Assembly (NCBI GenBank): GCA_027923505.1
Contig: BROI01000001.1
Span: forward strand, 2,046,001-2,110,000
DNA length: 64,000 nt
Source of the DNA: Mayamaea pseudoterrestris
Taxonomy: Eukaryota
Reading direction: 5' to 3'
Below the pieces are notes generated by a model. That model searched no databases, was not told the DNA's origin, and saw nothing but the letters and a program-made list of their open reading frames with translations. The translations under genes and the position numbers were made by a program. Shown here one piece after another: positions 1,410 to 64,000 of this stretch (position 1 is the stretch's first letter; each line of letters opens with the position of its first letter).

Positions 1410-2133
1410 GGGTCAACGGCGTTCTTTGAAATAATAGATATATATGTAAGAATGGAATGTAAAGTATATGTTGACTGCTCAACCGGTTAAGCTAGCTAAT
1501 TCGGCAAACGATACTCGGACTTTCGCACACATCGAACTCGCGCTGGTTCAATCATGAGTGTGGTACTTCGATTCTTTCCTTTAGCGTCTTGACTAACATT
1601 TCTCCAGTACCGCGCATAAACATCATTGCAGGTCAGGAGTCAAGTGATCAAGCGATACATAGGACGATGGCAAAAAATGGATCGATGCAAAGCGTCGAGA
1701 CGGGACCAGTTCTGGGCGTCGGCGTCATCATGAAAAGTCGAAATGACTCATTCAATGACTGCAGTCGTGCATTCTAATCATGCGCCCAAAAATTTGGAGT
1801 TGTGACCAAAAGCATTGGCGGTTGCAGTAGCAGCCGCATCGAAACAGCATGACGATGGCATGACGAAGACGACCTCTCTCTCACACAGGTTTGTTCATTG
1901 GCATGAGCAGTCCGTCTAAAATTCACTTATTGTCGAGAGAGTGGGACAGACAATAGCATTGAGGCTGCAAGGAACGAGGCGGTAGCGCAAATAGGTCAAC
2001 CCTCACTGATTAGGCAGCTCGTCGCCCTACGTCAAACGACCCTTCTTTCTTTGACTTTTCCGAAAGGTCGAGAGAGACTGTTGCATATATCAGCCACCAA
2101 GTCTTTGTTTTTAGTGGACTCATATATACCACG

Positions 2134-4789
2134 ATGCGAAACGTCGCTTGCATTCTATTCCCTGCCATCGCTTCCATTTCCTTCACGTCAGCAGCAACTC
2201 GATGCCCTGCCAACAAAGACATTTCAAAAAAGTATCTCAAAGCTGTCAAGTCGTCCAAAACCAATGTATTTTATCCATCTGCATATTTTGTTGGATCTGC
2301 CGCCAAGTTTGTCAGTGCCACTGGCTTGAAGGAGCTTAACCAGCCACAACTTTGCGTCGACGGCGCCACTGTTTCCACCAAGATTGCCTTATATGACGAC
2401 GGCACTCATGGAGACGACGTTGCCAATGATGGTATATATTCTCGTGGCTGTGTCCATTTTTGCGAAAAGATTGTTAATCTTGGTGATATTTGGAACTTTG
2501 CCTACCAACAAAACTTTAACATGGCCGACCTGACCGTGGTTGATGCGTCCTTGAAGGGCAAGATTCCGCATCACGTTGTTCGGTCGCCAAAGTATCCAAA
2601 GGCAAGGATATATGTGACATCGCATGCGGCCTTCTTTGTGGATGATCAGCGCTACTACATGCCGACATGGCCGCTTGATTTTGTAAGTGCCGTTGAGTGT
2701 TGTGAACATTGTAGAACGCTTTTCGCCACGAGCCCTTGCCCTCGTGATTTTGCCTCACCGCCTGCCTTCTTTAACAAATCCAGGTATGGGACTATGCGGG
2801 TGCCAGGAACGTGGCAGTCTCTGCAATCCTCGATATTTTTGGTGACGTCTTTGACTGGTTTAGCATGACATCCTTCGATTTTAATTTCCGCTATTGTGCG
2901 GCGTGCAAGGCTATTCCTGGCGCATACAATATCAAGTATCATGGATGGGAACGTGTTGGAGGTGCTACGGCGTTCCGTAGGCCCGGAGAACTTAGCGACT
3001 GTGACTTTGCCATGACAGGATTCCCCATTCTCCGCATGGTGGGAGGCGTCAGTAATGAAGACATGTTAACCGAGTTCCTTGGCCAGATACATGAATGGCT
3101 GCATGGGGCGGCTGGCTTTAGCTACCAACGATATTTAACAAATGCGAGGAAGGGCGATGGGATGCATGTGCCAGGCACTTGCACGTCTGACCACAGCCAG
3201 CTACAAGGACCACTCTGGGACTGGATTCAGGGATATCCTACATCTGTTCCACTGTCGTATTGCGATGGTATTCCAAACTGCTACGAGAAGGCATATGATT
3301 TGGTTCGACTGCAACCAAACGCCGACTGTAATACATGTCCGGACTCGACACTTTCAACCTGCTGCTCCTTTCGGTACGAAGACGCCATTAATACGCGAGA
3401 GCTAATGCTAAGCAAGCCTGAGCTCTACCAGGCTTCGCCGTTACTGCAGTATATTGCTGGCGTTCTACCATATGAGAGTATACCAGCAAATAAAAAGACA
3501 TATTACTGTATGGGAAGTGATACTGACTCAGGTTGCGGCCCAAATAAACCGGCAGGGCCCTGTACGACGATCCCGGTGAACGACAAGGACCGTTCACGCG
3601 TGACATCAACTTTTGTGACGCGGTACACTTTGGACGAGTTAATCGGAAGTGTCGGTGGTCGTCGAGATCCTCCATTTAGGAAGGAGCAAGCCTTCCGAAG
3701 TGCTCCCATCCTCATTGGTCAACGACCTCCAGCAGAGGCCGAAATGGTATTCTGGACGCATTACTGGAGATACCAAGAGCAGGAGAAAAATCCTTGGACT
3801 AGAGTTCCTAATACCTTTGGCACCCGTCGAGTCCCGCTGGTAACGTGGTCGTATACGACGAATGGTAGATCAACGGTCCATTCGAGGTTTCACGGTGTGC
3901 CATGCGGAGGAGGTCTGCAGGTACAAAGCTGCAGTACCGACAGAACCGTTTGTGATGGATTTCGTTGCGGCAAGGATGCAACATGTTACCCATATGACGG
4001 CAGACCATTGTGTGTCTGTAACGATGGTTTTTGGGGCGACGGCAATCTTTGCCAGCGGCCAGGTGTTTCCGAGTCATACGACAAAATATATCCATATCTG
4101 TGGAGTGCGCATGAGCTCTTCTACAACGGCGATGCAGAATACTACCCCAAGTATACCGTCAAGCAGTGGTGCTATGGTGACCAAGTCGACTGGCCTGCTC
4201 GCTTCTCGCCAGCCAGAATCGCTCCTTACCCGGGAGGATTGCCCCAATATGCGCTCATGGGCTGCGGAACTACAGTTTGTACATTGGCAGAGCGTTGCTC
4301 TCAAGGTGTTTGTGTTCCGCTTAAACAGCCGGTCCCAACGCGAAGGCCAACAAAGGCTCCAACGCGGAACCCAACAGCTCATCCGACGTCAAGTAATTTC
4401 CCCTCGTCAGTGCCCAGCGTCTCGTCGCGTCCCTCATTGAGTGCTTCGCCGTCAGCGACACGAGTAACCTTTACAGCCAGCTTTCGAATGGCCTCAAGGG
4501 CTGCGGCTCAGTCCAAGAGACAATGTGGATGTAAGGCTCGCTCCGACACCCGTGCCAGTCGTCGGGACCATGCTCAATGCATCAAGCAGATCACAAACAA
4601 CGTAAGTAACAGGTTGATGAAAAGCCGGTATAGTCGTCTCTGTCATCTAACTCAAAGATGCCTATGTTGCGGTTCCTCCTTTAGTTTCTGCGAGCAGATT
4701 TGCAAGCTGGAACCATTAGATCCAAAGACCAGGACGCTTGGATGGCCAAATTCAATCGGAAACTAAAAAAGACTTGTCGCCGCAAATGA
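2134..4789 (+). CDS. Secreted putative zinc metalloprotease, copy 1: signal peptide, choice-of-anchor-X-like motif, HExxH domain, EGF, P/T/S stalk, basic C-terminus (introns 2683-2783, 4602-4684)
   Basis: Splicing joins ORFs 2134 and 2811 (WPLDF|VWDYAGARNV) and adds a last exon FLRADLQAG…TCRRK*. Motifs LYDDGTHGDDVANDGIYS, HEWLH (3090-3104) and CDGFRCGKDATC…CVCNDGFWGDGNLC (EGF). Confidence 0.8.
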
Positions 4790-5721
4790 TGCGACGTTAA
4801 CAAAGCTTATGCGAGTCTTACCCGCCCATATGTACGTTAAATTGAAAGATCAGAGTATATTAAATGAAAAGTTTGTAGAGTTACAGTTAAACTTTATTCC
4901 GCTGATAACCCATCATTCTCGTACAAGTCTGCGCGACTAGTCGAACCATGCCAAGCTCCATGTACTGTACAGCTGTACGCCCTGATTGCGGCCCACTTGC
5001 AAGATTTAGTAACGTGGCTGGCATACAGGCTTGCGAAACTGTGACCGGCTGCCCTTTCGGCGCTTCGTCCGCAGCGGGCCTGGGTGCGGCAATGGAGCTA
5101 CCGTGGCGCGAATCATCAGCTCGAGAGTTGCAGCTGGATCGCGCATCGTTGGTATGATAATGACACGAACATATTGTAGATCAATAATCGAAGCATTAAG
5201 CATGCAAGCATCGTCGAGCCAGTAAACTTGTAGTTTGTGAAATACATTAGGTGAGCAGGATGAGTACTCCGCCTCAAAAATTTGGTACGATTGAAATACT
5301 CCCTAAGGAACAAACTGACTCCGTTTTCATGACGAACTGACATTTTCGGCCAGTGTGCATTGGTTTGCTCCGTGGCGGTCGAATTCGAGCTGTTTGTGTT
5401 TCATCGAATGTGTGTCGCTGTCCGTTGAGCGCAAGGGAGTCACACACATACAAACCAAAAGTTCGATTCGACAATGGTGCAGTCATCATGAAAGGACTCC
5501 GCGCACCACCCTTCAAGCACGACCAGAGACTCTTACAACCTGCAAAAGACTCTCCATTCAGGCACCTGCTTACGAGACCAAAGTCACTGTCAAGTTAAGC
5601 TTAGATCCCTAGGTTCAGACTCGGCACACTTTGTTTTAGTTGAAGTTGCTTCGTTTTTGCCTCTCCTGGTGTCGTCGTGTCGACTATACCTCGAACGAAG
5701 CAACAAAGCGGACCGACAACT

Positions 5722-8357
5722 ATGCCATCAATCTGCCGTTACCGCCAGACAATCCTCTTCATAATCTTGCTACAATTACTACAGTCTTCTTCTATATCTG
5801 CCACAACAACATGTCCACTTCCTCAAGCAATCTCTGCCAATTTCCTTCAAGCCATCAAGCCAACCAAAACCAACGTCTTTGTTCCATCCGCCTACTTTTT
5901 TGGAAGCGCCGTGAAATTTATCAGCGCCACAAACCTCACCAGTTACTCTCACAATATGCTTTGCGTCGATGGGGGCACCACTCCCACACGCTTCACTCTC
6001 TACGACGACGGAACCCACGGCGACGATGTTGCCGGCGACGGCTTGTACACTCGCGCCTGCGTTCACTACTGCCAATCCTTCGTTGACTATTCCGACATTT
6101 GGAACTTTGCCTATCAGCAAACAATTGAGAGTGCCGATCTCATTGTCGTACGACCCGATTTGCAGAACCAAATACCCTACCATGTCATTCAAAGTCCAAA
6201 ATACCCCAAGGCAACCATTTACGCAACCTCGCATGCCGTCTTTTTCGTGGACGATCAGCGCTACTACTGGCCTAATTGGCCTCTTGAATATGTGAGCGAA
6301 AAAAGCATTGCAAGCGTCGTCAATCGTAAACTCCATCTCACATCGTCTCCTTGTTATACAGGTCTGGGACTATGCTGGCGCACGCAATGTGGCCGTATCG
6401 GCCATTTTGGACATTTTCGGAGACGTGTTCGACTGGTTCAGCATGACACCTTTTGACTTTAACCAGCAGTACTGCGCTGCCTGCAAGGCAATTCCTGGCT
6501 TTTACAATGTCAAGTACCATGGATGGGAGCGCATCGGAGGAGCCACCGCCTTTCGAAGACCCGGCGAGTTAAGTGACTGTGATTTTGCCATGACGGGCTT
6601 TCCCATATTGCGCATGGTGGGCGGTGTGAGCAATGAAGACATGGTGACAGAGTTTCTGGGGCAAATACACGAGTGGCTGCATGGGGCGGCTGGGTTCAGC
6701 TATCAACGTTCGTCCCCGACCAAGGCGAGGGCTGGTGACGGAATGCATGTCCCAGGCAGCTGCACATCAGACCATTCGCAGCTACAAGGTCCTCTCTGGG
6801 ACTGGGTCAAGGGTTACCCAACGCCCGTACCCGTCTCCTACTGTGTTGGAGTCGCCAACTGTCATGAAAAGGCCTACGATTTGGTGCGGTTGGAGGCTAA
6901 TACGGACTGCAGCACTTGCCCAACAGAAAACCTTGCCTCTTGTTGCTCCTTCCGGTACGAGGATGCCATTAACTCGCGGGAGTTCATGTTGAGCAAACCA
7001 AATATATTTCAAGCATCTCCACTACTGCAGTACATTGCTGGTGTCTTGCCGTACAGTGAATTTCCATCAGACAAAAAGACTTATTACTGCATGGGCAGCG
7101 ATACTGACAGTGGATGCGGTCTCAACAAACCGCAGGGCAACTGCACCGTTCCGGTGAACGATGCAGATCGGTCGCGGGTCACCTCCTCATTCGTGCAACG
7201 ATATACTTTGGAAGACTTGATTCAGGGTGTTGGAGGATTCCGAGACCCGCCGTCTAGGAGGGAGAGGGACTTTCGCAGTGCACCCATTCACCTTGGTCAA
7301 CGCGCGCCTTCTGAAGCTGAAATGGTATTTCGGACGCTATTTTGGAGAAATCAAGAGGAGCAGAGTGAACCATGGACAAGAAAACCAAACACGTTCAACA
7401 CGCGACGCGTTCCACTTGTAACGTGGTTGTACATGACCAATGGCCGCTCAACCGTACATTCCAAGTTGCACGGAATCCCCTGCGGGGGTGGGCTTCAAGT
7501 GAAGAGCTGTATCAATGATCAAACGGTGTGCGACAAGTTTGTTTGTGGGGCAAATGCGGCATGCTATCCATACGATGGACGGCCTCTCTGCGTTTGCAAT
7601 GACGGATTTTGGGGAGACGGTAACCTTTGTTTAAATCCCAGTGTGCCTGCAGCGTATCCTAAGATTTTTCCATATTTGTGGAGCGCTCACGAGCTATACG
7701 TTAATGGAACGAAAGCGCAGTACTACCCGAAATATACGGTTAAACAATGGTGCTACCCTGACAATGTCGACTGGCCTGCCCGGATACCAGAGTCTGAAAT
7801 CGCGCCGTACCCTGGAGGTTTGCCCCAGTATGGGCTGAACGGTTGCGGAAGCACATTATGCACTCTTTCAGAACGCTGCTACCAGGGTGGATGCTTCCCG
7901 CTCGGACCGACGACGTCGCCCACAAGACCACCAGTAGCAACGCGTCAACCGACGACGCAAAGTCCTTCCTCTTTTACTCTTCAAAAGGTACCTGCAACTA
8001 CGCAAGCACCTAGCAGTCAGGCTCAGGCACCTTCGCCTTTCAAGCCCTTGTTTAATAAGGTTGTGAGAGCAGCTAAAAGCGCAAAGATTAAGTGCGGTTG
8101 TACGCCGAGTGCTGCGACTAACTTGGCCGCGAAGAAGCGAACTCGATGTATTACTCGTATAGTCAACAAGGTACGCAATTATGCAGCAAGCCTTGAAATT
8201 AAATTGTTGCAACCGAAACGACTTACATAAATTTTCTTCTTGAACTTTGCACCTTTAGTTTTTCGATTTAGACCTTACATCAGGAAACGTGAGACTAGAG
8301 GACAAGGACGGTTGGACGCAGGCATTTAACCAAGAGTTGCAGCAAAGATGCTCTTAA
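5722..8357 (+). CDS. Secreted putative zinc metalloprotease, copy 2 (tandem paralogue; introns 6292-6361, 8171-8258)
   Basis: Collinear with copy 1, with long identical peptide stretches and the same two intron positions. Carries LYDDGTHGDDVAGDGLYT, HEWLH (6668-6682) and an EGF domain. Last exon FFDLDLTSG…QQRCS*. Confidence 0.8.
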
Positions 8358-13331: not shown

Positions 13332-16141
13332 ATGGCATCGACCTTCTGGGAATACGCTTCGGCCTGGGTCGACGCTGCCTGGTCCCCATGCGGAAATTAT
13401 TATGGCCAAGTGCCACCAGACGAGCCGAGCTGTCACCAGGAAAACATCAGTCAAAGCAGCTCAAATAGAAGAAGACTACGTACGAATCAAACTTTTACTG
13501 CCGACGATGAAATACTGAGCTTGGAAAGTTGCACTAACTGCAGTAGCGAGGACAGTAGTTCTGGCGGCGAATGTTCCGCACCTCTCAATGCATCTTTGAC
13601 TTCGACAGCTGCGACTTCCCGGTTGAACAGCGAGGAATTCATGCATGGCATTCGAGCATGTATTATCGATGAGCTGGTGCTTGCTGTGGATGAAAAGACA
13701 AACGAAAGAAACGATCCTATATCACTTGCGACGTCGGGTGATGGCACGTCTTTCCAATCCACGCTTGTTTCTGCCGAGAAGGAGCTTGACGCAATCCTGC
13801 AAGCAGACAGTCCAATGCTGGAAGTACTCAGCCAAGCAGACTCAGGCGACATAGCTACAGAGCAATTGGATCTCCTTCAGTCGCAATTGTCGTTTAGACA
13901 TGCGACTGATGCGACTACGATCAACTTTCCCACTTCGTCGCCAGCTAACGTTCAACAGCAACACTATTTAGTTCGCAATGATTACTTTGACGACGATTCA
14001 ACATTGGTCAATTCCAAAGGCGACGTCAGTATCGAGATTCCTCTCACCAAGACACTATGGAAAGACTGCTGGTTCGTCTCTGCTCATGATACGATTATGG
14101 AATCATCCGTTTACCAAAGTGACAATGACGAAACGAGTGAAGGAAGCGATATCTTTTCGGCGCTTTTATCGGCAAGCGGACATGTGCATGGCCAATATGA
14201 AGACAACCTCATTACGTGCGACGGCAAGCGCTCCTTGAACGACCTCGAGAAGTCGCCGTGCGCCAAGCGACATGTACCGGCCACGGTGCACCAGCCCTCT
14301 AAAGGCTTTCGCGCTAGCTTGTTGGAAGCAATGGATAAGAATACTGTAATATATGATGAGAAAGACAGCAACATCAGTGGTGACATTAAGGGGGAAGAGA
14401 CCTTAAGTGCATTATCAGGAATTTCGCTTGGTGATGTTATCACAACGCACGCGCATTGCGATGCAGCCGACGGAGAACAATCGTCTAGTAAATTAGAAAC
14501 AAGTGCCAGGAATGAACTTGCAAAAGATGCTGACACTGAGTTGTTTCGCGATGTCCCGGACATTTTGGCATGCAGGACAAGCGGCCTCACAAAAGCAAGT
14601 CCTCGTCACGCCGAGGTTTGGAAGAGACGTGAATCAAAGTCGGGGTTTCAAGTCGTCAACCCTTCGATGCTATCAATTGCACCGGTAGCAAAAATAGCCA
14701 AGGAGACCAAGTACGCCAACGTTTGCAAAACAAGCTCATACAACGGAGAATTATTCAGCGTTCCGAGAACTTGTTGGGCGCCTGAAAATAGAAACCATAG
14801 TTGCAAGACAGATCAGCGCCCAAGTATTAATTTTGTTTCAACACTCGCTGAGACTGCTCTACATTCTCGTACGCAAACAAAAGATACTCCATCTATAAAT
14901 TCCATCGCAAATCTCGCAATGTATAAAGGCTCGCATCTTGACGCGATCAAGGATACGCCAGACAACATTTCGGTAAGCCTGTAAGTACTTTGTCAGAATC
15001 CATGGCACAGACGCAGACTGGCGATGTCACCCAACTAACACCACCACCCCTTAGTCTAAGTCTGCAAGTTCGCGGCGAGGCTGTCGAAAGCTCCTCCCTG
15101 AATGTACTGTATGAACACGATGATAGCGACGCAGAGTCACAAAGCACCGGTCCCAGCAGTGACGGAGAGAACAGAGGCCATCGATACAGGATCAAAACAG
15201 GTTTGCTGATGCTTGTCGCTAGTGAAACAAGTACTTTCGTCGACGCAAGAAGACATGATGATATACCAGAAGCATGCATGATCGACGAGCACGACAGTTT
15301 AAGCCGACTCTTTTCTGGTTGGTGCCATCTCCATGCATCCCACGACAATGCTGCCTTGAAGACACCGTCACCCAGGGTCCGAATTCTCAAGTCCATGAGA
15401 GTAGAGGGCGCTGTCAAGGCTTCTGATGTGCGTTTGCTGCTGGAAAGCGATCACGACAATTTTAATGAGCAGATGAAAAATGCTCTTGAAGCCGTTCACT
15501 GCATCTCGACTTTTCTGCTACTATTTCTAGTTCCCTTGACGTTGGCAAGTCTTGTTGCACTTGTCTTAATATGGGCGCGGAGTGATGTTTGTCTGCAAAT
15601 TGCCCTCGCAGCATATTGTGCGAGATTCGCCTATACTCTACAAGCCATTGTTATGGTAGCAACCTTCTCGAGCGCCAAGTTTGACGTAATTGCCGCTGCA
15701 GGTGACATAAGCTGTTTCCTTGGCGCTCAAGCCTTGCAGGGTCGCGGACGCGCAGATAACACTTGCACAGACTATCATGATTTGAAGACCGTATTACTCT
15801 ACTGCATCTTTTTTGGGTATGTTGCACTTCGCGGGTGGCAGCAAGCTACTAACGAGTGTGTGGCACCAGTGCACGAAAGTAATACCAGTATGGGTCCGTC
15901 TGAAATTATTTGGAGTTTCAAATGTGCCCATGAAGTTCATGCGATCGTTCCCGAGTTGCACGAAGTTTTCCAAGAGCCATTGGGAGCTGCAAATACGACT
16001 GCCGTGAGCCGTCTCACGCTTTTGGTAAGCGATCCAGATCAAAAGGCTTGTGCTGCGCTGGAGAGTGAACTGAGTACAACTGATCTTTACAAACGAGGTT
16101 GTGTCCGATTCTTGAGACGAGCAGATGTACGCTTTGCGTAA
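13332..16141 (+). CDS. Large Ser/acidic low-complexity protein with C-terminal transmembrane helices (intron 14981-15054 joins two ORFs)
   Basis: GTAAGT at 14981 (phase 2), CTAAC branch site and CCCCTTAG acceptor at 15054 join the 13290 and 14990 ORFs in frame. Hydrophobic segments FLLLFLVPLTLASLVALVLIW and others lie near the C-terminus. Confidence 0.6.
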
Positions 16142-17514: not shown

Positions 17515-18336
17515 ATGCCATCACGCAAAAGCAAACAAGCCGGAGGCAACTTTCCACTCACATACTACGAGCGCACCAAAAAGTTTGCCTCGAGCGAATA
17601 TGGAACGACATCGTTGCGTCTGGCAGGTCACTCGCAGTATCAGCTGGGAGACTGTGGGCTGACCTTGTCCAGACTGGGAGACACGGCCTTGTGCTCACCC
17701 AGTGGCCACTTGTATGAGCCAGCAGCCATGCTGGAGTATTTATTGGAGAAAAATGCAGAAATTAAGGAACTCAAGGCACTGTATGACGCTCAGCAAGCTG
17801 ACAAACTGCGAAGAGTCGAGGTGCGAGACGAAGCAGAGCAGCATGCCAAGAAAAAGGCTTTTATTGACTCGCAAAAGATGATCAAGCGTCAAAAACTGAA
17901 TGCAAATGATAGCAAGCATGTTTCCTACGATCAACTCAAGAGTGCCAGCTACTGGCTCAGCGATTCGCAGCCTCAGCTAGATGCGAATGATCAACCCGAC
18001 AAGATTCAACCTCCGTCGGATCGACCACTTTCTCCTCACTCCCAAGACCAAATATCGCGAAAAGAACTTTGGGAGGTCAAACTGCAGTGGCAGGAAAACA
18101 AATTGGTTTGCAGCGTTTCCAACAAGGTGTTGCGCAACAGTGTGGTTGCCTACTGGACCAGTCGTCAGGAACCGGGCCGCCTCGTTTCGCAAGACAGTTT
18201 AGACTTGCTGGATGGCACTTGTCATGAGACGGGCAAGAAAATCAAGTACATTCGCAAGCTGCAGTCCAGTGGAACGAGTTTCAGTGGTTCGGCGCAGCAA
18301 ACGGAAGCCACAATGTATCGGCCGACCATTACTTGA
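17515..18336 (+). CDS. NOSIP: Nitric oxide synthase-interacting protein homologue (RING/U-box-like)
   Basis: N-terminal MPSRKSKQ…TYYER…YGT…RL…SQ…C.LTL…SPSGHLYE..AMLEYLL and C-terminal LQSSGTSF match the NOSIP family pattern. Confidence 0.8.
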   Translation: MPSRKSKQAGGNFPLTYYERTKKFASSEYGTTSLRLAGHSQYQLGDCGLTLSRLGDTALCSPSGHLYEPAAMLEYLLEKNAEIKELKALYDAQQADKLRRVEVRDEAEQHAKKKAFIDSQKMIKRQKLNANDSKHVSYDQLKSASYWLSDSQPQLDANDQPDKIQPPSDRPLSPHSQDQISRKELWEVKLQWQENKLVCSVSNKVLRNSVVAYWTSRQEPGRLVSQDSLDLLDGTCHETGKKIKYIRKLQSSGTSFSGSAQQTEATMYRPTIT

Positions 18337-54481: not shown

Positions 54482-55009
54482 AGTAAATTCGGTAGAAGAG
54501 ATTATTGTGGCAGGATCTGTCCGGGCATGGTCCACGACAATAATGGAGGCGCTTCCAAGGCGCCCGTTGGCAAACATTAGAGTGCCACTTCCTTAACGGA
54601 TGAAATATCCGCGGGTCTTTACGGCGCGAATAACAAACGCCCTAGTGAAATTAGCATGTGCGTGCAAACATCACCGATTAACCACCAAAAAGCAAACATT
54701 AGGGTGCTTTTCCCATCGAGCATAGCGAAGCCGATCCAATGGACCTGCCAGTTTAGCTATGGTACCGGATCCGCCAGAAGCGACAATCATTGGAGCACCA
54801 ATGGCAGGGCCTACTTGGTGAACCCAACTGTAAATTCAGGTCACCAATCGTTTTCTTTTGTTGGCGTCGTCATTTGACATTTACTTAACCCTGACAGATG
54901 ACATTGGCGACTGTGGCGTCAGCTCAACTGACCAATTATATGTCAGACGAACGCCGGAAAATGTCATTGTTCGCTTTCACTGGACGCAGAGCATTTTTGG
55001 CTCGCACGA

Positions 55010-56323
55010 ATGCGACTTGCGACCAACATTGACATTTTCGAAAGCCTCAAAGGCTTGCCAAAGGTCACCAAGTTTGCTTCACAACAAACGATCAATCAAG
55101 TCACCATGGAACGAAGTAATTTTGGCTTTCCTACTGCCAATGCAATGGCAAGCGAGTCTCAACTTCGACGTTTTAGAAGCTTCTATCAATCGTCATTGCC
55201 GCCGCCGACGCAGCCGCATCTTACAGCCCAAGCATTCCGATCGACTCAACAATGGACGGGTTCACCTGCACAGCAGTCCCCCATGTCCCCTGCCGATCCC
55301 TTTGCAGCTCAAATGTTAGCGAGATCACAAAGGATGCAAATGTTAAGAGAAGGTTTCTTTGCGCCATCGCAAAGCTTTGCAAGTGATCTTCCACCACCTC
55401 TTCGACAGCAACATCGGCAGCGACAGCACTTCATTCAAAGCATTCCCCCTCCACCTTTATTCACGGAGCCATCAAGACGGGTGTCAGTGAGCTCTATTCC
55501 TTCTTCTGATGCTGCATACATGCAAAGCTACCTGCGAAATGACCCTCGCTCGACATTTGCAGTCCAGCCGCAGGCACAAGCAGTGCCTAACATGAACAAC
55601 TACTCGCTGATGCGGCGAGATTCGACATCCATGATATCACCAAATTTGTCTGTAGCGGGAACAAACTATCCTGTGCAAATACCTTGCTCGTATATCCCAT
55701 CTCCTTCTCACATCCCGACGAAATTGCATAACTTGCAGTTTGGAGGCGAGCCAAAGCCTGCCGTAGTGACACCTCAGATCAACCCGAAGCACTACTTCCC
55801 AGCAGCATTCTATCCCTCTTCAAGCGATGTTGTCATTGAGTGGTCCTTCGACAAAGAGGGAGAGACTCGCTTTCCGGGTAAGAATAGGCTGTTTGGAGAG
55901 TTACTATTGGCTAATCACGGAGCGTATCTCGCCTGCAGATCCAAAGCCCAAGTTTCATCTCTCGTTGACGCAATAATAGACGCGCTGCTTCAAAGTCACG
56001 GACACTTTGTAGTTCCGCAGCGTGTCAACGACAAAGTCCTCTGGAAACGAGCCGACTTTGACATGGCGCGGGCCTTTTGCGTCCATCGCTTGCAGTTTCT
56101 GGCCATGAGCCAGGAGATTGAACATCTATCCCAGCCTACCGATAATCCCGCCACCCGTCAGCACATTGAAACGTCGACGGCAAGGAGGATGCATCGATCG
56201 AACGCCAAGCAGCCGCGGCGGCAATCGATAGCGGCCGATATGCTCGACGACCAACACACCGAGGATGATTTGATTCAAGTGAAATTCAAACGTCCGCGGA
56301 ACGATAGGCCAAGTAGTAAGTGA
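55010..56323 (+). CDS. Pro/Gln/Ser-rich protein with a C-terminal DUF6824-like domain
   Basis: PSSSDVVI…FPGKNRLFGELL…Y…K…VDAIID…GHFV…W…D…AR…HRLQ follows the diatom DUF6824 pattern as recalled. Confidence 0.65.
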   Translation: MRLATNIDIFESLKGLPKVTKFASQQTINQVTMERSNFGFPTANAMASESQLRRFRSFYQSSLPPPTQPHLTAQAFRSTQQWTGSPAQQSPMSPADPFAAQMLARSQRMQMLREGFFAPSQSFASDLPPPLRQQHRQRQHFIQSIPPPPLFTEPSRRVSVSSIPSSDAAYMQSYLRNDPRSTFAVQPQAQAVPNMNNYSLMRRDSTSMISPNLSVAGTNYPVQIPCSYIPSPSHIPTKLHNLQFGGEPKPAVVTPQINPKHYFPAAFYPSSSDVVIEWSFDKEGETRFPGKNRLFGELLLANHGAYLACRSKAQVSSLVDAIIDALLQSHGHFVVPQRVNDKVLWKRADFDMARAFCVHRLQFLAMSQEIEHLSQPTDNPATRQHIETSTARRMHRSNAKQPRRQSIAADMLDDQHTEDDLIQVKFKRPRNDRPSSK

Positions 56324-57673
56324 TACGATAGTAAGAAGTTCAATTATTATGTGCGCTACTACGCTGGACTCTCTACCGGTAACCAGCAACCTGCGTGTTG
56401 ATTTCACTTCGACACCTTGTGCCCGGCTGTCTTCGGTACTGGTAATAGTATCCCATGGTTCAACTTGTAGTTGATAGATGCGAGATGCTCATGAATCAGT
56501 GGACATGGCAAAGAATGCTTACAGGCATAGGATGGGATTATGTTGGATCCGACGTTAAGGTTGAAAGTGGAACATGTAGGTGGCAGGTGCTTGCTAAGAG
56601 TGGCCGCAGAAGTGCAATTGCTGAACTATATCTCGCGCTAGGTTTTAGGCATGTTCATACTTAAATATAAATGGTATTTTATGCGGGACGCGAGCAACTG
56701 CACCGTCGATAAGTGTACCGGTACGGTTATTGGCGCGGATAGCGACACCATATGCACCCACCGGAACGTAACAAGACATTCCGCTCCGAAGGCGCTCTCT
56801 CTAGTTTTGCCATCACATGTAAGTGGCAACGGACGAGTCTAATGGATAAAAGCGACAAAGTTGTGCCAATGTGCCGTCCGCCGCATTGTAGCTAGTGGCA
56901 TGGAACAGAATGGCGCAGCCCATTCTTTTGGTCGACACGTACCAATGATTGCCACATGCAAGGCGCTCCAAATAGTTTACATGCACCCACACTCCTCAAG
57001 CATCAAGCACAGGCCAGGTCATTGCTATCCCGGATGTCATGTGTTTAGTTGTTGCGAGCTTCAGAGGAAGGGCCTGGGCCTGAGCCTGGCGGGAGTCTCA
57101 TAAAGGTCACAATGGAACGATTTTAGATCCTGGGATCTTCCCGTGAACCTACCGCTCGGTAATTTCGTCGAGCCACAGCTGCTGGTCACATGAAAGACGG
57201 TCGTTTGAAGCCTTTTCAGCCTTGAGCCTCCAACCGACCAATGACCGCAACCTTTTTCTTCATCGCTCTCCGAGCCGAAAACGGCTCCACGATTACGTCG
57301 ACGTCGCTCTTCCTCCGAGCCTTGCCGCAGCAAGACTCATTCTGACGAAAAAGCCGCATGGCCTATTGGGTGACCAGCTGTTGATATTTTTCTGTCGCAG
57401 ATGGTCAATATCTGTTTGACTATTGCCCTTAGAAACCAAGCGAGGATGAAAAGTCCCGCTTGTTTATCGAATTTCAGTACCGATACGATGACGGACAATC
57501 TCCGAATGGCCCTAACCCGGAATCCGTCGTCAGTCCATGACCGAGGCCTTTCTTTTCGAGCGCGTTGTTCTTGTGGATTTTGGACCACAACCTCCGAAAC
57601 CGAAGAGGCTCTCGGCCTTCACCATTAATCTGCAAAAGACTGCATTAACCGCTCATTGCATCGTTAAATAACA

Positions 57674-58423
57674 ATGTGCAATCCTCATCTTACTAAAACA
57701 GTTGACATGAGAGCTTACTGCCATGCTATTAACTCTGGTATCGTGCCAACGGTGACCAGTATGCCTCTGAAACCTTCTGCTGCTGCTTCACCCAAGGCCT
57801 CATTGTGCTTTGCCACGTCCCCAACGTCGCAAGCGTCCCCATCTCCTACAACTTCATCAAACAAGCGATCACTATCTCAAGTCAGTGGCACTGGCGAGTG
57901 CAGCATTGAAGCTCGATCCGCCGCAGATATTCCAGCCGTCCCACGTCAACCATCGGATGCGCCATGCACGAAACTATTCAACGCGTTCATACAGCGAGCG
58001 GTTCCTCGATTCATCACGGCCAATCCTCGAACTCGCGGCATGCTTGTCGAACTGATTATTCGCAAAGTGGAAGAAGTGTATCCAGATGCGTTTGTGGAAT
58101 ATTGCTCATCCTGCAACTGCGGACGAAGTCGCGTGGTTCCTCGAGATCGCATCCGCGCATTTGCGGCGAGCAAACTCATTGAAGCTTCCAAGAGTCAATT
58201 GGTGCAAAAACAAATAAAGGCGGAGAAACGTAAGCTCATTGCGCAAAAGGTTCAGGAAGCGAATGCGGCCTTGCGCAAGCAAGATAGTGAGGCTGCTGTT
58301 GCACTCAAGCAGCGTGTTTCGCAGGTTCAGTTCAAGCTGCCTCATGAGGAATTTGGACACGAAGATACGCATTGTAATGATGCAGGCAGCACTCAAAGAA
58401 TGCAGACGGAACTTAAAACATAG
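57674..58423 (+). CDS. Hypothetical protein, possibly a divergent DUF6824-like domain
   Basis: 249-aa ATG ORF. LFNAFIQRAVPRF…RGMLVELIIRKV…FV…RDRIRAFAASKL parallels the helical core of the upstream gene. Confidence 0.55.
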   Translation: MCNPHLTKTVDMRAYCHAINSGIVPTVTSMPLKPSAAASPKASLCFATSPTSQASPSPTTSSNKRSLSQVSGTGECSIEARSAADIPAVPRQPSDAPCTKLFNAFIQRAVPRFITANPRTRGMLVELIIRKVEEVYPDAFVEYCSSCNCGRSRVVPRDRIRAFAASKLIEASKSQLVQKQIKAEKRKLIAQKVQEANAALRKQDSEAAVALKQRVSQVQFKLPHEEFGHEDTHCNDAGSTQRMQTELKT

Positions 58424-58796
58424 ACTTGGCCAACCATACACTTTATAATTAATGGGATTTTTTAGCAAAGAGAAATGAACGTAGCCTGCGATCGCCGAGC
58501 GTCTCATTCTCACTTCAGTGACCAATAATGATGGCGACGTAGTTGGCTGCACGAGCCTATCATGAAGCTTTAAACACAATGAGAGACAATCGTAGTCGAT
58601 CCAAACTTTGCAACCATAAAAGGATTAGCTACCCTTTCTCTGTCCCTGTCTTACCGGTACTCTTGCTCCGGCAGACGGCGACGAAAGATCTCGTCCATGC
58701 GATGCGAGCAAAGCAGATGCGCAGCGCATTTGAAAGGAAGGAAACAAACATTAGAGAGACTTGTGAGCACCAAGTATACTTGTATTGATTTTCATC

Positions 58797-59999
58797 ATGT
58801 TTCTCTATCGCTCTTCTGCAAGGACGGCGCGACAGCTGAGTCACGTCGTTGGAGTAAGTCATGCGCCTGCGTTTATCAATGCTGCCTCCTTCGATTGTTT
58901 TCGTCGGACAGTCGACAGCACTGCCCGTTTTGAAAGACTTTATACATATAATCTCACAAATAATCATAAATTGCAGCATAAACGCTCCATGGCTACCGTT
59001 CAAATGGCTGTCCGCGAGGCAATCAACCAAGGGATTGACGAGGAAATGGCGCGCGATCCATCCGTATGGATTTTGGGCGAGGAAGTTGCCCAATACCAAG
59101 GAGCGTACAAGGTTACCAAGGGTTTATATGAAAAGTACGGAGATGCTCGTGTTATCGACACTCCCATTACTGAAATGGGATTTACTGGATTGGCCATTGG
59201 AGCCGCCTACAAGGATACCAAACCGATTGTGGAATTCATGACGATGAATTTTAGCATGCAGGCGATTGATCAAATTGTAAACAGTGCAGCCAAGCAATTC
59301 TACATGAGCGCCGGAGACATTGCTTGTCCAATTGTCTTTCGTGGACCAAACGGTTTCTCGGCTGGAACGGCGGCCCAGCATTCGCAATGCTTTGCCGCGT
59401 GGTACTCGTCTTGCCCTGGCCTCAAGGTTGTTGCTCCCTACTCGAGTGAGGATGCCAAGGGACTCATCAAGGCTGCCATTCGTGATCCAAACCCAGTTGT
59501 TGTCTTGGAGCATGAGTTAATGTATGGCGTTAGCTTTCCCATGTCGGATGAGGCGCAGTCAGAGGACTGGGTGACTCCGATTGGCAAGGCCAAGATTGAG
59601 GTTCAAGGCAGTGACGTGACTCTCATTTCATTTTCCAAGACTGTCGGCCTATGCATTGAAGCGGCAGAAGCCATGAAGGAAAAGGGCGTTTCCGTAGAAG
59701 TGATCAACTTGCTTTCTCTGCGTCCGCTGGACCGCAAAACAATTATTGAAAGCGTCAAAAAGACTGGCCGAGTCGTCACTGTCGAACAAGGATGGCCTCA
59801 GTGTGGCATAGCCTCGGAGATTGCTGCCATTTTGATGGAAACTGATGCATTTAATTACCTTGATGCACCCATGGAGCGTGTGACTGGAGCTGATGTTCCG
59901 ACGCCCTATGCGGCCGAGTTGGAGATTGCATGCTTTCCAGTATTGGATGATGTAGTTTCCGCCATTGAACGCACCACCTATCGTCGCATGGTTGCTTAA
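58797..59999 (+). CDS. PDHB: Pyruvate dehydrogenase E1 beta, mitochondrial (intron 58854-58976)
   Basis: [13 protein letters not shown]…[17 protein letters not shown]…[11 protein letters not shown]…[15 protein letters not shown]…AAQHSQ. Arg/Ser-rich presequence. Confidence 0.97.
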
Positions 60000-60233
60000 A
60001 TTTGCTAGGTCGCTGCATAAATAGTCACCGTAATTAATCTATTTGTTAATAGGACAATCTGTTTCGTTAATGCATGTCTATCTATCTGTTTCTATTTGTA
60101 TATATTTGGAGTGCATGGGAATGATGCGACTCCTGTCGAGATTTTGGAGCTTGCACAATCCTGTTGAAAATCAATGATAAGAAACAGGTAAGAAGATAAG
60201 ATGCGACAGTTCATGCTCTTCTCACAATTGTAT

Positions 60234-60313
60234 TTCCTTCCATCTGATTGATGTTATCATCAGGTGATCATTGAATGTAGTTAAAGGTTGAATTAATCGT
60301 CATGTGGAAGGAA
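60234..60313 (-). ncRNA. Putative orphan box C/D snoRNA
   Basis: 9-bp terminal stem TTCCTTCCA/TGGAAGGAA, C box ATGACGA (60303-297), D' ATGA, C' CTGATGA (60263-257) and D box CAGA (60246-243). It ends 73 nt before the 3' splice site. Confidence 0.55.
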
Positions 60314-60333
60314 TGCATCAAAGAGGCTGCCAA

Positions 60334-60429
60334 TGATTTCTCAGATTTTATTTTTGTACACTTTACGTCGAATCAGCATGACCAAGAGGTCAATCTGTCC
60401 GCCCGACGATACTATCCTCATTGAAACCA
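60334..60429 (-). ncRNA. SNORD43: Box C/D snoRNA, U43/SNORD43/snR70 homologue (guide for the SSU rRNA decoding-site Cm)
   Basis: Stem TGGTTTC/GAAATCA, C box ATGAGGA, guide CGTCGGGCGGA followed by D' CAGA, C' ATGCTGA and D box CTGA. The guide is complementary to SSU ACCGCCCGUCG with one U-U mismatch. CGGGCGGACAGA matches human U43 as recalled. Confidence 0.82.
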
Positions 60430-60473
60430 GCAACCGTTGATAAAACTAAAACGACACACGGCACATACCTGAT

Positions 60474-62390
60474 TCATTCTTCGAAATGCAACTCGCGCTC
60501 GTCCGCTAGACCGCTCCCCTCGGGGGGTCGATACGTGTCTCGCAAGTTGTAGATCAAGGACAGAGAATGCTCCACATCCTCAAGCTCGGGCAAGATGCCA
60601 GTTTTCACATCGCGGTTGTAGAAACCCTTCATCGAAGGCCCAAACACTGACTTCATGTCAGAACAGGTCTTTTGCAAGAAACCGAACGAACGCGTTGAGT
60701 TGCCCAAGACCGAAAGCGTTGTCGTATGTGCCTTTAACTGATACATTGACTTCCAGTAGGATCCTGCCGCATATCCACCTTGCGTCAGCTGCGCCATACT
60801 CTGAGGGAGGACAGTCGCCAGCGACTGCTCGGGCTGATAGCGAACACCCATGCCTTCCATGAGGCAAAGCGTCTGCTCCGATATGGTCGTTCCGAGTGAG
60901 GCGGGTCGCATGGCTGCCGCCAAGCAAAAGTGAGTATGGTTTGACCGGTCTGTCGGAAGTGGGGAACATGCCGACAGTATGCCGTTCTCCGTAGTGTCTT
61001 TCATCCAAAGTCCAGGAAGTTCCTCTCGAGCTCGTTTGCACGACGTTTCTTGTTGGTGTTTCATGCGCAAATCGCGCTCCACACTCGTTCCTTGCTGCAG
61101 CTTGTTGATGGAAAAGTCGGTCGTTGGTAGCAAGCTATCCAATTCAAGCATTAAATGAGTGTTAGACGGCTTCATGGTTGTCAAAAATTCGGCAAACGAC
61201 AGGTACGGAACAGTTCCAAACGGAAATTCGCCTCCATACGATCCGCCGTAGTACGAGTTGAGAGCAATCCGCGCCGACTGGGCGGCTGATGGATGCAGCC
61301 TGTAGCACAAGGTGGCTGCTTCCAATGCAGCGGCAGCTTGCATGATTGAACAAGTATTGGAAAGCGGCAGAATGGCGTGCGCATGCTGAGACTGCTCCGC
61401 CAAGGCAAGACCCGTTTGTAATCGTCTTCGAACGTTCTGCACCTGCTGCGTCCGCCACGTTGGAATATCGACATGCTCCGCCTCTAAAGGCCCCATACTA
61501 GAGTCGTCTTGCTTCTGCTGCTCACTCATGCTGATCATCCACCGACTCGCCGACGGAACCTCCTGCTCCAGCTCCTGCAGCAGCTTGGTGGCCAAACCAT
61601 CGGCCCAGCTGCGACTACCTGCCACCACAACGCCTCCGCACGAGTCGCATTCCTCCAGCAGCCAGCGAAGTCGCTCCAAACAGTCATTTTCAAGCCACGC
61701 TGGCATGGTGTGTGTGTACGAATAGTAGTCGTAGTCTTGATCGAACGATGTCGTTGGTAGACTCAGCAGAGACTTGGGGTGATGGGGCGGCGCCAAGTAG
61801 TCGAACCAGCTTGTCGACGACGCAGCTTCCTTCTGTGTAGAGGTACGCCAATACTCTTCGAGTTGCGATTGTAGCAGAGGCTGCGTCTGACTCTTGAAAA
61901 GCTGTTGCTGGCGGTTGGAAATCTCTTGATCGTCCTCGTCCATCATGTCGTTTTCCTCATCCCAGTTCACTTGCCGCGACTTGCTTTGAAACGTACTCTG
62001 CGATCGATAGCGACTATGTGCATTCGTCGCCATGACTGTGGCAGAGTTTAAAAAGTCGTCAAACGCGTCGTTGACTGGTAAAGCTGCATCAGACTCCTGC
62101 TGCTGCTTCAAATCCAACCGCTCCGTTCCTCCCTTCCAGCAATCATTCACAACGTCGTCCGGTAGTAACGCACTGCTCCGCCGCCGCACCATGTTTCGTC
62201 CCTCATCGACGAACAAGACGCGAGGAACGTAAAGACTGTTGTGTAGAAGGTGCGAAAGGTTTACGTCGCAGTAAGCTTGATCATGGCTAGTCGAGGTGGC
62301 CGCCAAGCCTTGGAGGTTGATTAAATGAGTCGTCAATTCGCACGCCTCGGCGCCGAGTGCAAGATGCAGAATCTGGCGGCGATTGGACAT
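60474..62390 (-). CDS. MSTO1: Misato/DML1 tubulin-like protein
   Basis: RQILHLALG…THLINLQ…YVPRVLFVD (Misato segment II), WFDYL..PHHPKS, ERLRWLLEECDSCGG. Confidence 0.8.
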   Translation of the reverse strand: MSNRRQILHLALGAEACELTTHLINLQGLAATSTSHDQAYCDVNLSHLLHNSLYVPRVLFVDEGRNMVRRRSSALLPDDVVNDCWKGGTERLDLKQQQESDAALPVNDAFDDFLNSATVMATNAHSRYRSQSTFQSKSRQVNWDEENDMMDEDDQEISNRQQQLFKSQTQPLLQSQLEEYWRTSTQKEAASSTSWFDYLAPPHHPKSLLSLPTTSFDQDYDYYSYTHTMPAWLENDCLERLRWLLEECDSCGGVVVAGSRSWADGLATKLLQELEQEVPSASRWMISMSEQQKQDDSSMGPLEAEHVDIPTWRTQQVQNVRRRLQTGLALAEQSQHAHAILPLSNTCSIMQAAAALEAATLCYRLHPSAAQSARIALNSYYGGSYGGEFPFGTVPYLSFAEFLTTMKPSNTHLMLELDSLLPTTDFSINKLQQGTSVERDLRMKHQQETSCKRAREELPGLWMKDTTENGILSACSPLPTDRSNHTHFCLAAAMRPASLGTTISEQTLCLMEGMGVRYQPEQSLATVLPQSMAQLTQGGYAAGSYWKSMYQLKAHTTTLSVLGNSTRSFGFLQKTCSDMKSVFGPSMKGFYNRDVKTGILPELEDVEHSLSLIYNLRDTYRPPEGSGLADERELHFEE

Positions 62391-62857
62391 GGTAAAGCAT
62401 GCGTCAAATGCATATACTTAGGCTAGCAGGATCAATGCTGATACATGTTGACAAAGGACAAATCGAATGGTGTTGTGAAGAATGAGCGGCTCTGCGTGGC
62501 AAGCAACTCCTCGCGCGGGCGATGAGCGCGTACCGGTACTCAGTCATTGCGGTGAAAACTGCAGTACGTCGTAGAGTACTGGCATTAGTCATTTTGCAGT
62601 CATCAAACGCGCGAAATCGGAACCCATGCCGAACTCCAAGCACCAATCGCAAGCGCCCAAAAGTGCAGCGGTAGGAGTCGGTCGGGTGTGGCCATTCGCA
62701 AATGCGGGCAATACCGCTTCACGATCACCGCGTCGCCTATCGCTTCGCTTGCAGGAGACAATAGTAGCGCTGCTACTTCCTCCGCAGACTCGCATCTTTA
62801 GCGTGGACCTGAGTCAACGAGCCACTGTCAGAGCAACTACCGGTAGTGCAAGTGATT

Positions 62858-64000
62858 ATGGAAGCGCCAGTTTCGTTGAGTCCGGCAAGTCGCGTGACGC
62901 AGCAATCCACTGCGCCGGAGGGAGAAGCGGAGCGTTTCACTGATGCAGGTCATGACACGAATAATGCATTGACCATGGCGCAGGAGGAAACGGTGCGTCG
63001 ATTCGCCGCCTTGCTCTCCAGCGACGGCAAACCCGCGCCGCTAAAGGACCTTTCGTCACTGCTGGCTTCGTCCGTGGCGGAGGATTCGGTCATTTTGACG
63101 CTGCCGCTGCTGGATCTGCGTTACGCGGAAACGGACAATAGTTCGAGTAGCAGCAGCAGTGCGTTACCAAAGATTGGAGAAAAGAAGGTGATTCATAATG
63201 CTCATTGCAATAGTAGCAGACCAAGCATGACAGCCTCCGTCTTGTCAGGAACAAACGTTGATGGTGCAGGGGGATCTCTGCAGGTGACAGACTCCACCAA
63301 GGCATCATTATCAGCTACTACAAGTCACACCAAATCCACCTCCTGGACCAAGTCCACGTTAGCGTACGCCTCCCACGCGCTCGCCACCAACGTGACGGAT
63401 TTCTTCTCCAACCTCATTGACTCGCGGGTCAAGGCCTGGACGCTGCTGTTGCTGCGGCATTCACTGTCGACGGGCGACACGGAGAGTCGGGCGCGCCTCC
63501 TGGGCATGCTGTCCACCTCCATTTTAGTGCAGCAGGCAACCACCAATCTAAAGACCTTGCCCATGCCGTCGTCGGCGGCGGGGCAGCGCAAGGAAGCCGA
63601 TGTCATTTTGCCGCTGCTGTTGGAAGTGTTTCTGCAATTGTCGATTCAGGACAAGCCGTCGACGATCAAGTTGCTGGCGCCGGGAACTATATCAGGTGCG
63701 TACTACTTGTGGTGTGTGGTATCTTTGATTTTTAACACTTTCGCTTACTACCTTCTTTACAATTGCAGCTGACTTTGAACAAGCCACATTGTCGCCAGGA
63801 GCACTCAAGAAAGTTGTTATCAATCTCGATACCGGCATTATGCTTAGTTGCATGATTGATCAGGCCAGGCTTATTGTCTTCAAGGCTGTCGCCAACGTCA
63901 CCAAAGCCAAGCTACCCTCGTCCATGTCAACCGTCGGGGTCGGATCAACGGAAGACCATGCAAACACGGACAGCAGTAGTAAGGAAAAGCCTGCAAAGCA
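62858..64000 (+). CDS. Hypothetical protein, runs off the window (intron 63696-63768)
   Basis: ORF NVTDFFSNLIDSRVKAWTLLLLR…LPLLLE…APGTIS| continues in frame after the intron as ADFEQ…LDTGIMLSCMIDQARLIV to the window end. Confidence 0.7.

Follow-up and report, generated by a model that had tools for sequence, protein, structure and literature searches.

The 64,000-nucleotide (nt) stretch of the freshwater pennate diatom Mayamaea pseudoterrestris analysed here (GenBank assembly GCA_027923505.1, contig BROI01000001.1, positions 2,046,001 to 2,110,000 of the forward strand; below called the window, with positions counted from its first letter) appears to encode two tandem small nucleolar RNAs (snoRNAs) of the box C/D class on the minus strand, directly behind the coding region of a Misato-like gene. 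The explanation preferred here, which is considered probable, is that both RNAs, one of the U43 type (unit 1) and one of the U34 type (unit 2), are released from a spliced 308-nt intron in the 3' untranslated region (3' UTR) of the Misato-like transcript. Judged by their predicted targets, the units seem to be two real snoRNAs whose sites date back to the last ancestor common to all eukaryotes (LECA), and would be new additions, absent from the annotation, to functional classes of great age. The elements concerned are the following.

60161..60468, minus strand: candidate intron of 308 nt, with donor CAG/GTATGT, branch-like CTTAC, pyrimidine tract and acceptor CAG
60334..60429, minus strand: snoRNA unit 1, 96 nt
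60314..60333, minus strand: spacer between the units, 20 nt
60234..60313, minus strand: snoRNA unit 2, 80 nt

Two adjacent box C/D units

Both units lie on the minus strand, with unit 1 beginning 45 nt past the stop codon of the Misato-like gene, and both show the general anatomy of a box C/D RNA, namely a C box near the 5' end, a D box near the 3' end and a short terminal stem, with at most one deviation per box. The terminal stem of unit 1 comprises 7 base pairs (bp; UGGUUUC/GAAAUCA, 60429-60423 with 60340-60334) and encloses the C box AUGAGGA (60421-60415) and the D box CUGA (60344-60341). Its guide core CGGGCGG (60405-60399) precedes a D' box CAGA (60397-60394), the same variant that forms the D box of unit 2, with 17 nt separating the C box from CAGA. 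The D' box is followed by a 5-bp hairpin (60392-60379, UGACC-UCUU-GGUCA) and a C'-like UGCUGA (60378-60373), which is overlapped by the alternative CUGAUUC. The second spacer, 28 nt between the C' and D boxes, holds an element, GUGUACAAA (60361-60353), that is considered below as a site of extra pairing. Unit 2 is closed by a 9-bp stem (60313-60305 with 60242-60234) and contains the C box AUGACGA (60303-60297), the guide core CCUUUAACUACAUU (60287-60274), the D' box AUGA (60271-60268), a perfect C' box UGAUGA (60262-60257) and the D box CAGA (60246-60243).

The deviations from the consensus RUGAUGA/CUGA in the C and D boxes are limited to position 5 of the C box, where unit 1 has G and unit 2 has C, and position 2 of the D box (A in unit 2). 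These two positions oppose each other in the kink-turn (k-turn) as a non-Watson-Crick pair, the k-turn itself being defined by two sheared G-A pairs and a G-C pair. The defining G-A and G-C pairs appear to be intact in both units, and the pattern of deviations is one that a functional k-turn should tolerate. As regards the internal boxes, divergent C'/D' motifs are reported to be tolerated in yeast (PMC3116282).

The predicted fold of unit 2 is distinctly more stable than that of shuffled sequences (z-score -3.41, with one of 200 shuffles as good), and the corresponding values for unit 1 are a z-score of -1.61 and 17 of 200. The intron folded as a whole is no more stable than its shuffles (z-score -0.25), and no stem spanning the 20-nt spacer is predicted. 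This spacer contains neither GT nor AG/GT and, given this, the layout is that of a single intron holding two snoRNAs. A loose search pattern for stem-closed C/D units gives four matches in the window, compared with a mean of 1.94 in 100 shuffles, and with stems of at least 7 bp the figures are 2 and 0.81, respectively; a lone C/D unit is unremarkable by pattern alone. What goes beyond chance is the adjacency of the two best matches, together with the Rfam match and the ribosomal targets described below, for the two longest-stemmed matches of the window are units 1 and 2 themselves. The further loose matches, at 15255-15307 (plus strand) and 58017-57953 (minus strand), have 6-bp stems, the D box CCGA and no Rfam support; being no more numerous than in shuffles, they are probably due to chance.

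Family likeness and predicted ribosomal targets

A search of the whole 64-kb window on both strands against 4227 Rfam families yielded a single match at E<=1, namely that of unit 2 to SNORD81 (RF00136; 37.4 bits, E 0.0013, or 9.2e-05 in a 4.5-kb search), and no match at the gathering threshold. In the SNORD81 alignment the likeness resides in the boxes and their spacing while the guide letters differ, so that unit 2 belongs to SNORD81 neither by score nor by a common guide. The weaker match to SNORD34 (25.6 bits, E 0.12) is the more informative one, since in its alignment the CUACAUU core of the guide and the D' box after it are in register with the family consensus; by covariance-model score, unit 2 is not assignable to that family.

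The ribosomal RNA (rRNA) against which both units were matched is throughout that of a metagenomic ribosomal DNA (rDNA) contig, L118, a complete, intron-free unit comprising small subunit (SSU, 1601-3398), 5.8S and large subunit (LSU, 4085-7422) sequences, which stands in for the rRNA of Mayamaea itself. Contigs from JGI metagenomes were searched for the complement of the unit 2 guide lengthened by a short LSU motif, and the target word AATGTAGTTAAGGGAAGTCGG was found in 110 of them. Seven of the 110 were scanned with Rfam; six had an LSU_rRNA_eukarya match, with the word inside the match in each of the six, and the seventh, L188, gave 5S rRNA matches only. Group I introns (Rfam Intron_gpI, 59-104 bits) were seen in the SSU and/or LSU of four contigs (L131, L194, L138 and L123) bearing the same LSU word. 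A 15-mer version of the target pattern was also searched for in viral contigs, where it gave 115 stretches, which were taken as chance matches uninspected; a 22-mer gave none.

The best rRNA match of any segment of unit 2 is a 14-bp duplex, including one G-U pair, between CCUUUAACUACAUU and positions 1886-1899 of the L118 LSU, and no other duplex of the unit 2 guide over the combined SSU, 5.8S and LSU sequences is lower in energy. It places LSU U1888 opposite the fifth guide nucleotide counted from the D' box AUGA. The 2'-O-methylated uridine Um1888, guided in yeast by snR62, is reported to correspond to human Um2824 (U34), Arabidopsis Um1882 (AtU34) and Dictyostelium Um2170 (PMC8817022; PMC5699541 for yeast), and the U34/snR62 clan has been assigned to LECA (PMC3511168). 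Unit 2 is therefore best read as a putative diatom guide of the U34/snR62/AtU34 type, predicted to act on the LSU equivalent of Um1888. Among the 110 contigs, only L170 (2117 nt, containing 5.8S and LSU) has TG directly before AATGTAG, with which pairing of unit 2 would take in each of the 16 guide positions beside D'.

The lowest-energy duplex of the first spacer of unit 1 over the same three rRNAs is with SSU CCGCCCG (1636-1642), and it brings L118 SSU C1639 opposite the fifth nucleotide from CAGA. In addition, the element GUGUACAAA in the second spacer matches SSU 1626-1634 perfectly over 9 bp, one nucleotide upstream of the first duplex; the target stretch is identical in eight of eight SSU 3' regions among the rDNA loci fetched. 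The methylated cytidine Cm1639 of yeast (snR70) is reported to equal human Cm1703 (U43), Arabidopsis Cm1641 (AtU43) and Dictyostelium Cm1715 (PMC8817022; PMC5699541 for yeast), and the U43/snR70 clan has likewise been assigned to LECA, with an archaeal counterpart (PMC3511168); a literature search for a paper tying C1639 to a bacterial equivalent returned nothing useful. Yeast snR70, as described by van Nues et al. (PMC3116282), has a conserved but non-consensus D' box, a guide-rRNA duplex that is among the shortest and a D'-C' stem, and an extra element pairing just upstream of its target gives five-fold more methylation when engineered in; the same source reports extra pairing in the second spacer of other single-guide snoRNAs. 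Unit 1 is accordingly read as a candidate for the U43/snR70 task, with the SSU equivalent of Cm1639 in the decoding centre as its predicted target. It would thus share both the job and the design of snR70, while its sequence does not place it in that family.

Two further matches of unit 1 were set aside. The CUGA at 60376-60373 was tried as a D' box, with a 9-bp match (one G-U pair) to SSU 963-971, and was rejected: no C' box would follow it, and many chance matches are as good as this duplex. A sense identity of 10 nt, GACAGATTGA, between window positions 60396-60387 and L118 SSU 1228-1237 is probably meaningless, as about 0.35 such identities are expected by chance.

What lends the target assignments weight is the location of the matches. 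Over about 5.3 kb of rRNA, the single best duplex of each unit appears to lie in register on a known methylation site, and both sites are among those common to yeast, human, Arabidopsis and Dictyostelium, the known sites numbering a few dozen. The extra pairing of unit 1 with the adjoining 9 nt, as a third element, may be added to this case. The sequence-only reading of this DNA had proposed two tandem C/D snoRNAs missed by open reading frame (ORF)-based annotation, and the Rfam results together with the guide and target analysis, at sites shared from yeast to plants, support this proposal. Its positions for the donor, the acceptor at 60161, both units and the 73-nt distance between unit 2 and the acceptor all agree with the sequence. 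The Rfam comparison that it had suggested as a check bore out one half of the pair, unit 2 resembling SNORD81 and SNORD34 below their gathering scores and unit 1 falling into no family.

The candidate 3'-UTR intron and its alternatives

Behind the stop codon TGA of the Misato-like gene, ATCAG is followed by the donor-like GTATGT (60468-60463), so that the donor lies 5 nt past the stop. The acceptor CAG (60163-60161) is preceded by a pyrimidine-rich tract and by a branch-like CTTAC (60192-60188), whose A at 60189 stands 28 nt before the AG. In donor, branch, tract and AG the candidate resembles the other introns of the window and has the signals of a U2-type GT-AG intron. For two introns nearby, 58854-58976 (123 nt) and 63696-63768 (73 nt), RNA-like contigs supply confirmation through GT..AG joints, listed at 58853>58977 and 63692>63766, and a survey of donor motifs gave about a dozen probable introns that join long ORFs and measure 73-144 nt; this list replaced a collection made by ORF joining, whose 5298 candidates carried no donor signal. 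The clearest of these introns begin with GTAAGT, GTACGT, GTGAGT or GTGCGT, and the clearer ones have a CTNAC motif approximately 20-30 nt before the AG. At 308 nt the candidate would be the longest intron of the window, an outlier as the sequence-only reading had held, and its GC content is 0.386, as opposed to 0.473 in the others.

The bracketing of the two units by splice-like signals was compared with random placement. When a 196-nt segment was set at 18144 positions on both strands, a donor motif occurred within 50 nt upstream in 675 cases and a branch motif, tract and YAG within 100 nt downstream in 275; both occurred in 13. Measured from the 3' end of unit 2, the acceptor is 73 nt away and the branch-like A about 47 nt. 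The optimum in mammals is reportedly 70-80 nt from the 3' splice site, according to the 2001 work of Hirose and Steitz. Both distances fit the positional dependence cited in PMC13736004, in which C/D snoRNA processing depends on the position relative to the branch point. In human cells, 3'-UTR introns beyond about 50 nt from the stop are reported to trigger decay of the transcript (PMC5238794); by analogy with this rule, which comes from animals, the candidate junction of the diatom, 5 nt past the stop, would be well inside the permitted distance.

Four sets of contigs (X1-X4) were compared with the window over 55001-64000. They differ from it at many sites, being 95-99 % alike with small indels, and derive not from the same sequence but from either a close relative or a set of divergent alleles. 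X1 and X2 are DNA-like and X3 and X4 RNA-like; one X2 contig loses its likeness left of 60237, at the 3' end of unit 2. Among the indels listed for the interval in this relative, those at 60319 (a 1-nt deletion, in the spacer) and 60442 (5' of unit 1) both fall outside the units, a placement that is compatible with constraint on the units, with the reservation that there are two events only. Taken together, the splice-like signals suggest that a 308-nt 3'-UTR intron very probably carries both snoRNAs. The sequence-only reading had also held that a non-coding intron is maintained for the sake of the snoRNA cassette; the splice signals and their bracketing of the units speak for the intron, and its maintenance remains an inference.

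Expression and processing may be pictured as follows. The Misato-like pre-mRNA would be transcribed through the snoRNA cassette, the 308-nt intron starting 5 nt behind the stop would be spliced out, and Snu13-type proteins would bind both k-turns. Exonucleases would then trim the debranched intron to the outer ends of the snoRNAs, which would be shielded within their ribonucleoprotein particles. Because two units share one intron, a cut within the 20-nt spacer would be needed to part them, failing which a twin RNA would persist; the fold of the whole intron predicts no RNase III-type stem in this spacer. The unit 2 guide upstream of D' AUGA would direct 2'-O-methylation of the Um1888-equivalent LSU uridine, and the short, all-G/C guide of unit 1 upstream of CAGA would target the Cm1639 equivalent while the 9-nt stretch of the second spacer clamps the 18S rRNA just upstream.

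A more far-reaching version of this scheme, which seems quite improbable, is that the intron serves solely as a snoRNA carrier placed so as to spare the Misato-like mRNA from decay, that the units stay joined in a twin C/D RNA, about 196 nt long, acting on both the SSU decoding centre and the LSU, and that the clamp design is common to fungi and diatoms. If this were true, the use of a short guide with a flanking clamp on the decoding-centre cytidine would either be inherited from an ancestor or be imposed by the target itself. Stable multi-snoRNA forms are reported from Ostreococcus (PMC7671301), so that persistence of a twin RNA is conceivable.

Several findings weigh against the assignment of both units to old guide types. 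The Rfam score of unit 2 lies below the gathering score both for SNORD81 (37.4 versus 50) and for SNORD34 (25.6 versus 38), and on the latter count it does not enter clan CL00055 by score. For unit 1, Rfam gave no family; a search with 116 nt returned only noise at E 3-5 and no member of the U43/snR70 clan (CL00059) at E<=10. Eukaryotes differ at the LSU position that faces nucleotide 10 of the guide and, because of this and of the use of a stand-in rRNA, the 14-bp duplex of unit 2, with a U at that position, is a prediction for Mayamaea. The correspondence between L118 and yeast numbering was itself inferred from the close agreement in length and, in the case of the LSU, also from the register of SNORD34, and not from an alignment with yeast rRNA. 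The contiguous guide of unit 1 pairs over 7 bp only, followed by a U-U mismatch and two G-C pairs, and its C' box is poor. When the interior of unit 1 was shuffled, a bipartite match of at least 16 arose in 41 of 3000 cases, and a G-U-tolerant run of at least 14 arose in 186 of 3000 shuffles of the unit 2 interior; the best duplex energy was equalled in 62 of 200 shuffles for the unit 1 guide and in 22 of 200 for that of unit 2. These tests were run without positional constraint, and as support for the targets they are weak.

It would be very improbable, all the same, that neither unit functions and that nothing more than ordinary 3'-UTR or intergenic sequence is present, in which box-like motifs arose by chance. 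That a shuffled window contains the loose pattern about two times and that every Rfam score is below gathering would suit such a view, but it is opposed by the E value of 0.0013 over the whole window, by the adjoining of the two longest-stemmed pattern matches and by the mapping of three elements, two guides and the extra pairing, to two sites conserved in four eukaryotic groups. Another possibility is that unit 2 alone is functional, unit 1 being either a copy that has decayed or a hairpin that is C/D-like by chance and has no real target. Such a unit would show the modest fold z-score, the degenerate C' box, the 7-bp contiguous guide and the Rfam results confined to noise at E 3-4, its values would be equalled by shuffles as often as those of unit 1 are (41 of 3000 and 62 of 200), and 0.81 units with a 7-bp stem are expected per window in any case. 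This explanation is nevertheless improbable: unit 1 lies on the same strand and 20 nt from a well-supported snoRNA, its k-turn-critical G-A positions are intact, the best duplex that it forms across some 5.3 kb of rRNA coincides exactly, and in the right register, with a site of LECA age, and its second spacer pairs with the adjoining 9 nt in a design like that of yeast snR70.

A different alternative accepts both snoRNAs as real and dispenses with splicing of the intron. The units would be cut from an unspliced 3' UTR or from read-through transcripts, or would form a dicistronic transcription unit of their own with a promoter inside the end of the Misato-like coding region, as in the polycistronic clusters of yeast and plants. 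This agrees with the coverage of the RNA-like contigs, in which X3 and X4 end at 60498 on the Misato-like side and at 59985 on the other, leaving 60101-60400 uncovered, with no spliced contig or read across the candidate intron; it also agrees with the donor GTATGT, which is absent among the donors of the clearest introns and is not the commonest of the window. Two snoRNAs per intron would, moreover, require an endonucleolytic step anyway, and independent and polycistronic clusters are reported as common in plants, Chlamydomonas, Euglena and Ostreococcus (PMC7671301). On the other hand, a full bracket of splice signals was found at only 13 of the 18144 random placements, albeit by criteria chosen after the candidate had been seen, and with some of the 13 expected to be real introns. 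The donor follows directly behind the stop, with CAG as the exon end, the CTTAC and its spacing are like those of the confirmed introns, and excision from an unspliced 3' UTR would wreck the tail of the host mRNA. The production of the two snoRNAs by such a route is therefore regarded as fairly unlikely, and release of both from the spliced intron remains the preferred explanation.

The candidate intron lies between two convergent genes whose stop codons are 474 nt apart:

60474..62390, minus strand: Misato/DML1-like coding region (host gene), stop TGA at 60476-60474
58980..59999, plus strand: pyruvate dehydrogenase E1 beta-type gene, the convergent neighbour, stop at 59997-59999

The long minus-strand ORF at 60474-62417 matches a hypothetical protein of M. 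pseudoterrestris, MPSEU_000075700, with 100 % identity. Homologues of the protein carry the Misato-type Pfam domains Tubulin_3 and Misat_Tub_SegII, and the window protein itself matches Misat_Tub_SegII at E 0.0099 only, so that the name Misato-like seems fair, with weak support from the direct Pfam scan. The TGA at 60476-60474 can be taken as the true stop because a 67 %-identical homologue (P0002) ends at the matching position (...RFEE, compared with ...HFEE in the window protein). At the 5' end, the deposited model (P0001, 591 amino acids; window 62180-62720, minus strand) starts with MTEYR and is then joined to LYVPRV, whereas P0002 is colinear with an in-frame upstream start, MSNRRQILHLALG..., at 62390. 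In that stretch falls the one Pfam signal that the window protein has, Misat_Tub_SegII at residues 5-89, and the annotated 5' exon and intron of the gene are probably wrong. The product of the neighbouring gene contains the Pfam domains Transket_pyr and Transketolase_C, each at E ~1e-41, and the confirmed intron at 58854-58976 is upstream of the listed segment of that gene. A scan for bacterial promoters and terminators, which has no bearing on this DNA, gave no result.

Relation to known systems

Two-gene intronic clusters are already known from the green lineage, and it is common for non-ribosomal genes to host snoRNAs in their introns; the 3'-UTR position directly against the stop and an snR70-like clamp in a stramenopile are neat details and not new principles. 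A literature search on diatom snoRNAs found no diatom snoRNA catalogue, the one diatom paper that was examined uses a snoRNA merely as a reference in quantitative PCR, and the M. pseudoterrestris genome paper (PMC9724779), according to which RNA-seq reads exist, makes no mention of snoRNAs. The present annotation, which is judged sound, could seed such a catalogue, and it offers candidate guides for two highly conserved ribose methylations of the ribosome in a stramenopile. The candidate intron suggests that even a compact genome of 30.6 Mb can retain a short 3'-UTR intron for the sake of the RNAs it carries, and unit 1 may represent a second lineage in which a decoding-centre guide leans on extra base-pairing. 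More generally, ORF-based annotation leaves real genes in 'intergenic' gaps, to which unusually long introns are a cheap pointer.

Unit 2 resembles the members of clan CL00055, namely U34/SNORD34 (RF00147), snR62 (RF01205) and AtU34, in its size of about 80 nt and in its single active guide upstream of D', and it has in common with SNORD34 the CUACAUU core in register and the same predicted LSU uridine. It differs from SNORD34 in falling short of the gathering score and in the greater similarity of its boxes and spacing to SNORD81, with which it has no common guide, and from the U34 systems in its D box CAGA, its C box AUGACGA and its tandem arrangement with a second snoRNA behind a non-ribosomal gene.

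The predicted target of unit 1 is the decoding-centre cytidine served by the members of clan CL00059, namely U43/SNORD43 (RF00221), snR70 (RF01238) and AtU43, from which unit 1 is set apart by the lack of detectable sequence or covariance-model similarity. Like snR70, it combines a short guide, a non-consensus D' box, a D'-C' stem and extra pairing just upstream of the target; unlike in snR70, where the extra pairing lies in the D'-C' loop, that of unit 1 lies in the second spacer.

As in the intronic clusters reported from rice, Chlamydomonas and Ostreococcus (PMC7671301, with reference to Chen et al. 2008), more than one snoRNA occupies the host intron, which implies a polycistronic intronic precursor. 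In contrast to those of the green lineage, the candidate intron belongs to a diatom and would be confined to the 3' UTR, starting 5 nt after the stop, and its units are separated by 20 nt with no evident stem. Mammalian hosts carry one snoRNA per intron and differ in this from the present intron with its two; the likeness to them is in the placement of unit 2 relative to the acceptor, at 73 nt, and to the branch-like A, at about 47 nt, the first of these distances falling within the 70-80 nt that are said to be optimal in mammals.

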